Assembly: GCA_963731265.1 (NCBI GenBank)
Contig: CAVSUE010000001.1
Coordinates: 1,728,001 to 1,792,000 of the forward strand
Source of the DNA: an uncultured Verrucomicrobiae bacterium
Lineage (GTDB): Bacteria > Chlamydiota > Chlamydiia > Chlamydiales > Rhabdochlamydiaceae
DNA length: 64,000 nucleotides
Reading direction: 5' to 3'
The notes under the pieces are model-generated. The model saw nothing but the letters and a program-made list of their open reading frames with translations, did not search any database and was not told the DNA's origin. This document shows, one piece after another, positions 495 through 2,464 of this stretch; the first letter of the stretch is position 1; every line of letters starts with the position of its first letter. A program made the position numbers and the translations under genes.

Positions 495-2144
495 ATGACT
501 TTTGAATTTATCATTTCATTCCCTTTTTTAGCCCTCTGCTCCAATTGTGATTCATTTAGGGCTCAGCACCACGTTGAAATGATTGAATCAGTAGCTTATG
601 ATTATTTGGAAAAAGCAAAACAGCAAGGCTTTCAATGTCAATGGATGTCAGAGAGTCTAATTAATGACTTAGAAACATATACGACTATCAAGAGTTATTC
701 CAAAATTTGTTTTGTTTAAATGAAGACAACATAACTAGCAGCATTAAAAATGCTAAAAAAAACATTCAATATTTAATCAAGTCAATTCAAAGAGAGTCCT
801 CCTTTGAATCTCCTGAAACCGATCTAATAGCCTCTTATAACCGGCAACTTAAAAACGAAGAATCAAGAGTTCAACATCTCACTTCATCAGCAGAAAAAAA
901 TTCGCATTCTATTAAATACTGGAATTTCAAAAGTTCAAGAAACTTATCAGAGACTTTATGATGATTGCATACAAATACACCCTTGCTCATCAGCCTATTA
1001 TGAACGCGGTTTGCTTCATTTTGAACAAGGAAAAAACATCGAATTTGTCAATGATATTTCAAAAATAATTGAGAAAGGTGACGTACAAGATGTTTTACAA
1101 AGAAATAACCAATCTGATTTCTCCTTATACTTAAAAATAGGAAGAAACTACAATGAGCTTGCAGCATACGATCAAGCCATTGAGGCTTTGGATAAAGCTA
1201 TCGAATTAAATCCTCTGAACAAAAACGCTTATTTCGAACGAGCAATTGCATATTTTGAGAAAGGAAATATATCCACCTCCTTACAAGATTATCTTCAATC
1301 GAATTTAAAACCAACGCAAATTGACTTAGATCTCAAAGACTCTTTCGACTATGCCGCTGGCTTACTATTTGGTGCTGCTAAAGGGGTAAAAGAAGGAGTT
1401 GTAGATTATGTGCCTTCGATCCTTTCATCGGCACAGGGGTTAAGTCATGGTCTTTGGTCTTTGGTAACAACTCCTGCGCAAGTTTCTAAGCAGGTAGTCG
1501 AGGCGTGTAAAGGCTGTGCTAATTTTTTAAAAGAAAATGCATCTGCAGAAATTGTCTCTAAAATAGTACCCGAACTCAGGGAACTTATCGAAAAAAAGGA
1601 TGAAATTTCCAGTCAAAGGGAAGGAGAAATTATTGGTTATATCATCGGCAAATATGGTGTGGAAATTTTTGCCGGAGGCGTAATGGTGAAATGCATGAAA
1701 GCATATAGATCTTTAAAAAGGGCCAACGCATTATTAACCATGGAAGTAGCTGCCATTAGTGAACAAAATCGCATTCATATTGCCGTCGAAGCCGCCAGAA
1801 AGGCCGAAGCAAGAAAACAAGTTCTGAGATCTGCTAACTTACAGATACGATGGAATAGACAAGGGAAACACATTCAAGGCTATAAAGATTATGATCCGCT
1901 GAGAAGTGAGTTTACGCATCCTGATCCACAGGGGCTTGTTAATAAATTCGCTGGAACTGGACAACGGATTAACAACAATAAACCTGGGCCCCCTAATTAC
2001 AGAGAGAGAATTAATTTCAAAGAAATCATAGGCGTTTATAAAAATGAAGCAGGAACAATCAGCCAGGAAACAACAATAGGCATGATTATTTACAGCAATA
2101 ATGGCACTCACATAATCCCACTTAGACCAAAAGATTTTTTATGA
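495..2144 (+). pseudogene. TPR-repeat polymorphic toxin with C-terminal Ntox50-like RNase domain, split by two frameshifts
   Basis: ORFs 495-719, 668-961 and 831-2144 overlap and join into one protein via shifts near 670-700 and at the A7 run 894-900. TPR motifs: AYYERGLLHFEQG, AYFERAIAYFEKG. The C-terminus QGKHIQG...FAGTG...ERINF..IIG...TTIGMIIYSNNGTHIIP fits bacterial toxin 50. Confidence 0.75.
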
Positions 2145-2464
2145 GAATAAAACACAATAGTAACGTTGATTATTCATTAGAAATTGCAATTAGAATGTCG
2201 TTGCAGCGAGCACTATTGAATGAAATCTCTTCGAATTTAAGAATGGTAGCTGTCGATTGGAATAACAAAGAGAAAAAAATTGTTATTTATTTTTATTTTG
2301 ATAGAGAAGTTTCTGAGGAAAATAGAGATTCGGCAAATTGCGTGGCAGGTGAAGTAACAGGAGATTTTGATCCACAGACAGAGATTACCGAAAATTGCAT
2401 TCAATTAAATAGTCCATTAGAACTGCCAAATCATCAATGTACGGTGTATCGCAGAAGAGAATAA
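2141..2464 (+). CDS. Putative immunity protein for the upstream toxin
   Basis: 107 aa with an ATGA overlap on the toxin stop codon. The SLQRALL..I..NLR.V.V...YFYFD.E.SEE.......GEV..DF pattern is typical of small genes that follow toxin tips. Confidence 0.7.
   Translation: MRIKHNSNVDYSLEIAIRMSLQRALLNEISSNLRMVAVDWNNKEKKIVIYFYFDREVSEENRDSANCVAGEVTGDFDPQTEITENCIQLNSPLELPNHQCTVYRRRE

Follow-up and report, generated by a model that had tools for sequence, protein, structure and literature searches.

A probable decayed member of a chlamydial polymorphic toxin family, with an Ntox50-type tip and a coupled MafI2-like immunity gene

Polymorphic toxins are familiar as weapons used by bacteria that live freely or on surfaces and touch one another. 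The subject of the present work is a putative polymorphic toxin gene and its immunity gene at positions 495-2464 of a 64,000-nucleotide stretch of DNA (hereafter the window; contig CAVSUE010000001.1 of GenBank assembly GCA_963731265.1) from an uncultured chlamydial bacterium. The closest known pair is MafB2-CT/MafI2 of the maf island MGI-2 from Neisseria meningitidis B16B6 (PDB 8HHJ; PMC9970974). In the sections of that report cited here, MafB2-CT is an RNase whose toxicity is abolished by each of the substitutions H335A, H402A, and H409A, and is neutralized by MafI2 (Kd ~40 nM; PMC9970974). YxiD-CT, which forms a pair with YxxD in Bacillus subtilis 6633 (PDB 9V8I), is assigned to Ntox50 by its authors, the title and abstract giving a tRNase activity (PMC12700104). 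Regarding the family itself, the 2012 catalogue of Zhang, de Souza, Anantharaman, Iyer, and Aravind (PMC3482391) defines Ntox50, in the part drawn on here, by the first and the last of these three histidines, with a 'single N-terminal histidine'. Chlamydiae are listed in its Table 2 among the phyla with Ntox50 and Ntox35, tetratricopeptide repeats (TPR) are listed in its Table 1 among the repeats of Sec-type toxins, and its table gives no immunity protein for Ntox50.

The window probably holds a decayed member of a phylum-wide chlamydial polymorphic toxin family together with its immunity gene. This reading builds on the domain identities, the homology of both partners to a solved pair, the variation of the tips, the co-variation of tip and immunity gene, the breaks in the toxin gene, and its place in an inserted segment. 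Concerning the tip, the last ~90 amino acids (aa) match Ntox50 (PF15542) with E 3e-22 across profile positions 4-92 of 92, scoring 79.6 bits (cut-off 22.2) in this search and 84.1 bits in a second one; this is the sole Ntox50 domain in its own genome. Sequence searches of the Protein Data Bank (PDB) matched the tip to YxiD-CT (9v8i_B, E 2.4e-4) and to MafB2-CT (8hhj_B, E 2.7e-3). An AlphaFold2 model of the 377-aa open reading frame (ORF) that contains the tip, made from 53 family sequences (mean confidence, pLDDT, 87.3; predicted template-modelling score, pTM, 0.86), gives the tip the predicted fold of these solved members. The modelled tip superposes on 9v8i_B with Z 14.5 and a root-mean-square deviation (rmsd) of 2.6 over 98 residues at 33% identity, and on 8hhj_B with Z 13.6 and an rmsd of 1.8 over 90 residues; Foldseek retrieves both (E 1.9e-4 and 1.8e-3, target TM-scores 0.77 and 0.73, respectively). 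The QGKH motif, equivalent to MafB2 His335, aligns with QGKH of 8hhj_B and is kept in all 61 family tips, and GTHIIP, equivalent to MafB2 His409, aligns with GVHIVP, the histidine of HI[VI]P being present in 57 of the 61. With regard to these matches, the tip can be assigned to Ntox50 as a genuine member.

The ATG of the downstream gene overlaps the TGA of the toxin gene (ATGA at 2141-2144). Its 107-aa product has no Pfam or NCBIfam match, and as a single sequence it matches MafI2 (8HHJ chain A, 8hhj_A) with E 5.8e-4. The genes immediately behind Ntox50-tipped relatives encode a clear family (alignment A1, 12 sequences) with the invariant pattern A-L...L-R...E...P...R-x-E, and the A1 profile matches 8hhj_A end to end (positions 9-99 against 9-101 of 108, E 2.1e-8); Pfam gave a meaningful match for none of the 12 members. 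When the fetched loci were scanned in six frames with this profile, a same-strand member whose start lies between -20 and +34 nt relative to the toxin stop was found in 24 of the 25 Ntox50-tipped loci with room downstream, 11 of these 24 having been used to build the profile and 13 not, and in none of the three loci with other tips, the only non-Ntox50 loci examined. The immunity gene can be said to co-vary with the tip, because the A1 family follows 24/25 Ntox50 tips and 0/3 others, and because other tips precede other small genes, such as a 160-aa gene after an LHH tip. At 14 loci (among L009-L036), MafI2-like genes occur in two to four copies, in tandem or as fused two-domain ORFs, after a single Ntox50 toxin gene; the window's immunity gene is the sole copy in its own genome. 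As judged from these alignments, the 107-aa gene encodes a conserved immunity-type partner, and both partners are homologous to a solved and biochemically characterized toxin-immunity pair. A preliminary description of this locus, made before any database search, had named an Ntox50-type tip and an ATGA-coupled immunity gene, and both identifications hold, the former in the profile search of the C-terminus and the latter in the MafI2 match and the family conserved behind Ntox50 tips.

Numerous different tips can be found behind the same middle part. Among 86 relatives, a sample drawn with window-like queries in which Ntox50 is over-represented, six unrelated tip classes were counted (61 Ntox50, two classes of 11 members each, and three singletons). 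Of 198 module-carrying proteins, 181, retrieved with a query that contained no tip, have a tip of at least 50 aa. Ntox50 is the largest of their 13 classes (106), followed by two unnamed ones (42 and 22), a pair, and nine singletons, two of which may be degraded. Tips named by Pfam include LHH / colicin-pyocin DNase (E 2e-5) and DUF6883 (E 8e-24), weak matches being Ntox35 (E 2e-3, below the cut-off) and DUF4258 (in L006, see below). At least 10 unrelated tip types are carried by the module, with sharp junctions. When the six tip classes were mapped onto a maximum-likelihood module tree (83 rows), 10 changes were needed; the minimum is 5, and shuffling gave a mean of 23.7. The differently tipped P0046 is nested in a well-supported Ntox50-tipped clade of this tree; it is 67% identical to P0026 over ~549 residues, and the similarity collapses right after a shared AAAQW motif.

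The window's own genome holds four more copies of the middle part, at 32-34% identity, all on contig C1. Two of them, L003:955-3129(-) at ~0.97 Mb and L005:433-2688(+) at 2.0 Mb, are intact paralogs of 725 and 752 aa with a common tip of ~170 aa that has no Pfam match; the genes after them (127 and 124 aa) show weak DUF7945 matches (E 1e-4 and 6e-4), below the cut-off. An extra internal hydrophobic stretch of ~37 residues, rich in Ala and Val, was observed in both (residues 169-205 and 174-211) and is absent from other members. L006 (~0.13 Mb) is decayed, with several stops and a deletion. In tblastn pieces, its identity to L003 is 93-94% for residues 1-126, falls to 67% in the degraded middle, and is 60% for residues 504-595; beyond residue ~595, it has a different tip, that with the weak DUF4258 match, followed by a 90-aa ORF. 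L004 (~1.17 Mb) resembles L005 at 88-92% identity but is decayed: it has stop codons, is split, and ends short of the tip. Pfam did not match the neighbouring ORF, which is unrelated and has 355 aa or more, and its candidate identity as a transposase-type gene was dropped on that account.

The architecture of the scaffold is best seen in a relative of the same genus (G403), where the intact form comprises, in order, a signal-peptide-like N-terminus, a short Cys-containing N-domain, TPR, a 176-aa helical module, and a ~100-aa Ntox50 tip. In the window, the ORF at 495-719 has a hydrophobic N-terminus (MTFEFIISFPFLALC...) whose hydrophobicity score of 2.17 lies inside the family range. A strongly hydrophobic stretch is found in the first ~40 residues of 112 of the 152 long members, and in 0/152 for an internal control window. 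By eye, the family N-termini look like classical Sec signal peptides followed by Cys-containing N-domains, and types of N-domain recur with different tips, e.g., the LWPDFCLEHL type and the CxC type. The TPR of the window match Pfam TPR_1 (E 1.4e-8) and TPR_11 (E 4.5e-8). Pfam matches in the intact 549-aa ortholog are confined to Ntox50 and TPR-type families, two of the latter being TPR-like helical-repeat matches (E 1e-3 to 4e-3); an N-terminal domain of the Rhs, TPS/CDI, LXG, or MafB kind was not found.

Between the TPR and the tip lies an all-helical module of 176 positions (alignment A4) with the consensus GLxxGxxxGG...GLxxGLWAF...GKYGVDIFAG; the window has the Gly/Ala-rich stretch GLLFGAAKGVKEG...GLSHGLWSL. 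Pfam matched the module in 0/27 members. Folded alone, it reached a pLDDT of 68.5 and a pTM of 0.59, and the modelled fold is one with no assignable relative, not one demonstrated to be new. Three candidate relatives were set aside: the best PDB sequence match, a designed helical repeat (E 0.003), was taken as spurious; the best structural match covered a helical hairpin with Z 5.4, which is under the noise level of helical proteins; and the matches in the ESM Atlas (recognition 1981), among them clusters with the MafB, PT-TG, and EndoU_bacteria families (0.83-0.85), were of lead level only and were not used.

The A4 profile retrieves 735 representative clusters when E<=1e-3 is allowed, a number that falls to 632 at E<=1e-10 and to 298 at E<=1e-30. 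In a survey of 400 sampled genomes of the phylum (roughly 320 loci), the module was present in 170 genomes and in 105 of the 212 genera, with at most seven copies per genome. It occurs in 5/11 genomes of the window's genus and in 0/29 sampled genomes of one family with genomes of 1.0-1.2 Mb (f4). The source names on the matches are Chlamydiia/Chlamydiae and Candidatus Neptunochlamydia, together with one metagenome-assembled genome each labelled as Verrucomicrobia and Hodarchaeota. As far as sampled, the scaffold family is restricted to Chlamydiota.

The toxin gene of the window does not read through in one frame but is split into three pieces (Table 1). The longest ORF that holds the tip begins at an internal TTG at 1011 and encodes 377 aa, which corresponds to the public gene call P0001. 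This TTG is the sole start codon in piece 3, none being found before it; the homology of full-length relatives starts upstream of it, at window positions 882-996, and in the G403 ortholog it is an internal Leu codon. The G403 assembly (80% complete) matches window positions 2-2660 at 93% nucleotide identity, and its ortholog, L038:1102-2751(-), is a single intact ORF of 549 aa, after which the 107-aa gene follows with an identical overlap, 6 of the 107 residues of the immunity protein differing between the two. Compared with this ortholog, the window shows two one-base length differences, one near 683 and the other in the A-run at 894-900. Piece 1 corresponds to residues 1 to ~62 of L038:1102-2751(-), and the ancestral frame between the two breaks is window frame 2; neither piece 1 nor piece 2 has a Pfam or NCBIfam match. 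Window positions 495-880 are resolved by the G403 ortholog alone; tblastn with 28 full-length relatives gave no significant match there because the N-domains are too divergent. The dN/dS ratios relative to G403 rise from 0.16 (tip) and 0.18 (immunity gene) to 0.23 (TPR and module) and 0.36-0.53 (N-terminal pieces). Considering the low ratios of tip, TPR, module, and immunity gene, the toxin gene was under purifying selection until recently, and the breaks are recent. A young pseudogene with an intact immunity gene next to it is the best reading. Since the frame shifts separate the signal-peptide end from the TPR, module, and tip, the genome most likely makes no exported toxin from this locus. 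All the features that the preliminary description had seen in 495-2144 (hydrophobic N-terminus, TPR, Gly/Ala-rich segment, QGKH, and GTHIIP) are present, but in three frame pieces and not in one gene. Its expectation that tips and downstream genes would vary among homologs agrees with the class counts above, and its view of the N-terminus as a non-standard delivery part agrees with the Pfam result for the intact ortholog. The proposed uncharacterized chlamydial toxin class stands as a phylum-wide family, but chlamydial Ntox50 and TPR in Sec-type toxins were already tabulated in 2012, in the tables cited above (PMC3482391).

With regard to function, the intact proteins would be exported across the inner membrane by a Sec-type signal peptide, because most long members have hydrophobic N-termini, and piece 1 of the window fits this pattern. 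The tip would then most likely cleave a target RNA by a two-histidine, metal-independent mechanism, as in MafB2-CT, and an RNase activity may also be expected of the Ile variant described below by analogy with that enzyme. Like MafI2, the coupled 107-aa protein most likely forms a 1:1 complex with the tip in which the RNA-binding face is blocked, and the producer and its kin cells would thereby be protected. Across the family, cassettes of tip and downstream immunity gene are exchanged on a constant scaffold. In the window's own genome, the lone immunity gene is probably kept as a protective gene. The target would most likely be other chlamydiae that share the host cell; the use in competition between co-infecting endosymbionts, which the preliminary description had also suggested, is at this point an inference only.

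Several points weigh against a functional toxin-immunity system of this kind. The position of MafB2 His402, one of the three histidines essential in that protein, is Ile in the window (GMIIY), as it is in L008 and P0002; across the family tips it is His in 49/61 and Ile in 4/61. Membership of Ntox50 holds despite this Ile because the position lies outside the two-histidine definition of Zhang et al. One Ntox50 locus (L015) is without an A1 immunity gene, and the 86-relative sample has the query bias mentioned above. The signal peptide is called from a hydrophobicity heuristic and a reading by eye; the module is without a recognizable fold relative; and no outer-membrane or cell-entry device was identified. 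An obligate intracellular life limits cell-to-cell encounters. Finally, the toxin gene of the window is not intact and does not speak for an active toxin in its own organism.

A bolder proposal, to which we give a modest chance well short of even, is that signal peptide, Cys-domain, TPR, and module together make up a self-contained, Chlamydiota-specific delivery device that is unrelated to contact-dependent inhibition (CDI), Rhs/type VI secretion (T6SS), LXG/type VII secretion (T7SS), and Maf. Such a device would carry interchangeable nuclease tips between chlamydial cells in a shared inclusion or host cell, and the Gly-rich module would be the part that crosses the membrane. If this were true, warfare between obligate intracellular bacteria would be widespread in the sampled genomes of the phylum, about half of the sampled genera having the module.

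Regarding other explanations, the family could consist of host-directed effectors that are exported to the inclusion or the host cytosol and attack host RNA or DNA, the immunity protein only protecting the producer before export; this we consider improbable. The internal hydrophobic stretch of L003 and L005 would suit such a role, being presumably similar to the bilobed segment found in inclusion-membrane proteins of chlamydiae. The 2012 catalogue argues that the host is the target of many toxin-like proteins in intracellular bacteria, including some with TPR, Sel1, or ankyrin repeats, but takes an adjacent immunity gene as a mark of intra-bacterial conflict (Zhang et al. 2012, PMC3482391). 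In the chlamydial family, the immunity gene is nearly always present and often multiplied in tandem, and the swapping of tips is typical of kin antagonism. In the window, moreover, the immunity gene outlasts the toxin gene, which is a better fit to protection from neighbours than to self-protection. Defence against the toxins of neighbours is favoured over a role in the host because the immunity gene is kept, is multiplied, and outlives the toxin.

It is still less likely that the toxin gene of the window is functional, the breaks being assembly errors or the A-run acting as a phase-variable switch. The second break does lie within a homopolymer, and the comparison with G403 shows purifying selection on the coding sequence at either side. 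No public sequencing run shares more than 0.14 of the words with the stretch, and no RNA run is among those listed; contigs from the runs X1, X3, and X4 were aligned to the window. Position 683 is covered by X3 alone, a run ~91% identical to the window with the ortholog-like state at both break sites, so that no run with the window's own variant covers it. At the A-run, however, contigs of X1 (757-1002) and X4 (752-1021), from two studies, reproduce the state of the window exactly, with 0 differences and 0 gaps each. The first break is outside a homopolymer, both breaks would have to be reversed jointly, and the same genome has two other decayed copies with stop codons, L004 and L006. At least one of the two breaks is real, and a young pseudogene remains the preferred reading. 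That the pair is an intracellular toxin-antitoxin (addiction) module that stabilizes the inserted island without export is barely credible: it is a translationally coupled two-gene unit on an inserted segment, and the ORF from TTG 1011 has no hydrophobic N-terminus, but this TTG is an internal Leu codon of the ortholog preceded by homologous coding sequence without a start codon, and large multi-domain proteins with hydrophobic N-termini and swappable tips are unlike type II toxins.

The toxin and immunity genes lie within an insertion of low GC content (Table 1), which is 0.29-0.44 within 483-4660, 0.33-0.40 in 495-2464, and ~0.51 in the left flank. In the genus relative G092, the acyltransferase and M16-type protease genes are only 17 bp apart; in other relatives, 175 bp to 17.8 kb separate them at the same site. 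The last ~140 bp of the acyltransferase gene are duplicated after the immunity gene (342-482 against 2494-2632, 84-86% identity), which suggests that the cassette was inserted by recombination at the end of that gene. Neither a tRNA nor an Rfam family was found in window positions 1-6000/8000, so that a tRNA-linked integration site is not indicated. Promoter-like and terminator-like sites in 300-3000 are not above shuffled expectation, and a scan of ORFs and Pfam matches gave no evident partner transporter gene in the 4.2-kb insertion. The 489-aa ORF at 2946-4415 has no Pfam or NCBIfam match above cut-off and no usable match in the ESM Atlas; G403 has a copy of it with 91-92% nucleotide identity.

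Table 1. Features of the toxin-immunity locus and its surroundings in the window
Feature	Position	Strand	Basis
3' end of acyltransferase gene, first copy of the direct repeat that brackets the cassette	342..482	+	Pfam Acyltransferase E 3.4e-4 on 1-480
Low-GC insertion, ~4.2 kb, from acyltransferase gene to M16-type protease gene	483..4660	.	GC and relatives
Toxin piece 1: start codon, signal-peptide-like hydrophobic N-terminus, CxxC	495..719	+	frame 0, stop 717-719
Toxin piece 2: open frame 2, with the ortholog's N-domain matched by ~684 to 897	668..961	+	
Frame break 1: one-base length difference from the intact ortholog, outside a homopolymer	683..683	+	
Frame break 2, within an A-run	894..900	+	
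Toxin piece 3: TPR, pre-toxin module, and tip, frame 0, 437 aa stop to stop	831..2144	+	
TPR-type helical repeats	1011..1292	+	Pfam-significant portion 1125-1292; model helices 2-97 match TPR structures
All-helical pre-toxin module, conserved, with Gly-rich motifs (alignment A4)	1293..1820	+	
Ntox50 RNase tip (predicted)	1854..2120	+	Pfam, PDB sequence, and fold matches
Putative immunity gene, MafI2-like, intact, 107 aa, start overlapping the toxin stop	2141..2464	+	
3' end of acyltransferase gene, second copy, displaced and diverged	2494..2632	+	repeats D1-D3
Dispersed repeat, ~190 bp, within the insertion	2641..2831	.	
489-aa ORF without assigned function, within the insertion	2946..4415	+	

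Various other contents were seen at the same site in relatives. The gaps of five of them (L044-L048: G404, G305, G402, G278, and G224) hold unrelated genes and no copy of the module. The cargo of G404 consists of two paralogous ORFs of ~475 aa with an LLTLPxxxFxRI motif near the N-terminus, a motif that we take to recall F-box proteins. In G305, a small nucleotidyltransferase-like ORF and a partner are found, and the remaining relatives have unrelated ORFs. Short second copies of the acyltransferase 3' segment occur at the site in G278 and G405. Regarding repeated elements, the repeat at 2641-2831 has at least 15 further copies in its own genome (77-88% identity) and at least 20 in G092, some in tandem, is rare or absent in the other relatives listed, and has no Rfam match. 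Another element of 55-57 bp lies directly upstream of the protease gene (4482-4537) and is found at several places in G392, G401, G403, G404, and G402, at 79-85% identity.

Taken alone, the window is of more modest interest, as a recently inactivated copy at a hypervariable insertion site. What is new here is a polymorphic toxin system with its own scaffold, of which the tip/immunity pair is a further Ntox50/MafI2 case. A candidate immunity family is supplied for Ntox50, the 2012 catalogue having none, and the pre-toxin domain, without an earlier description, may hold the delivery mechanism. No account of the scaffold family or of the pre-toxin module was found in literature outside the subscription journals, and Additional File 1 of PMC3482391, a part of that source beyond the tables cited here, may list such architectures. 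Judging from the distribution of the module, environmental chlamydiae may be in conflict with each other or with other bacteria within their eukaryotic hosts. A natural strain pair, with the toxin intact in G403 and only the immunity gene intact in the window, is available, and the toxin-immunity pair is open to direct testing.

With regard to known systems, the chlamydial pair is like MafB2/MafI2 in that both partners are homologous and the toxin gene precedes the immunity gene, and the chlamydial immunity profile matches MafI2 over its full length, including the C-terminal R-[RK]-x-E end. Unlike in MafB2, the delivery part is unrelated and without the MafB N-terminal domain, and the tip of the window has Ile instead of the essential His402. 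YxiD-CT, as solved in PDB 9V8I (PMC12700104), is the best structural match of the tip. In contrast to the YxiD/YxxD pair, the chlamydial immunity profile has no match to any 9V8I chain at E<=1, YxxD and the chlamydial immunity proteins appearing to be different families, and Pfam found no LXG domain in the chlamydial ortholog. None of the defining domains of CdiA, Rhs, or LXG toxins was found in this ortholog by Pfam either. Nevertheless, the chlamydial family follows the logic of all three: a constant delivery part joined sharply to a swappable tip, a cognate immunity gene, and immunity genes that occur in tandem or as orphans. It also shares a predicted signal-peptide-like leader, a repeat stalk, a variable C-terminal toxin, and an adjacent immunity gene with the polymorphic toxins of the Sec/type II secretion (T2SS) type as they are described in the cited parts of the 2012 catalogue (PMC3482391).

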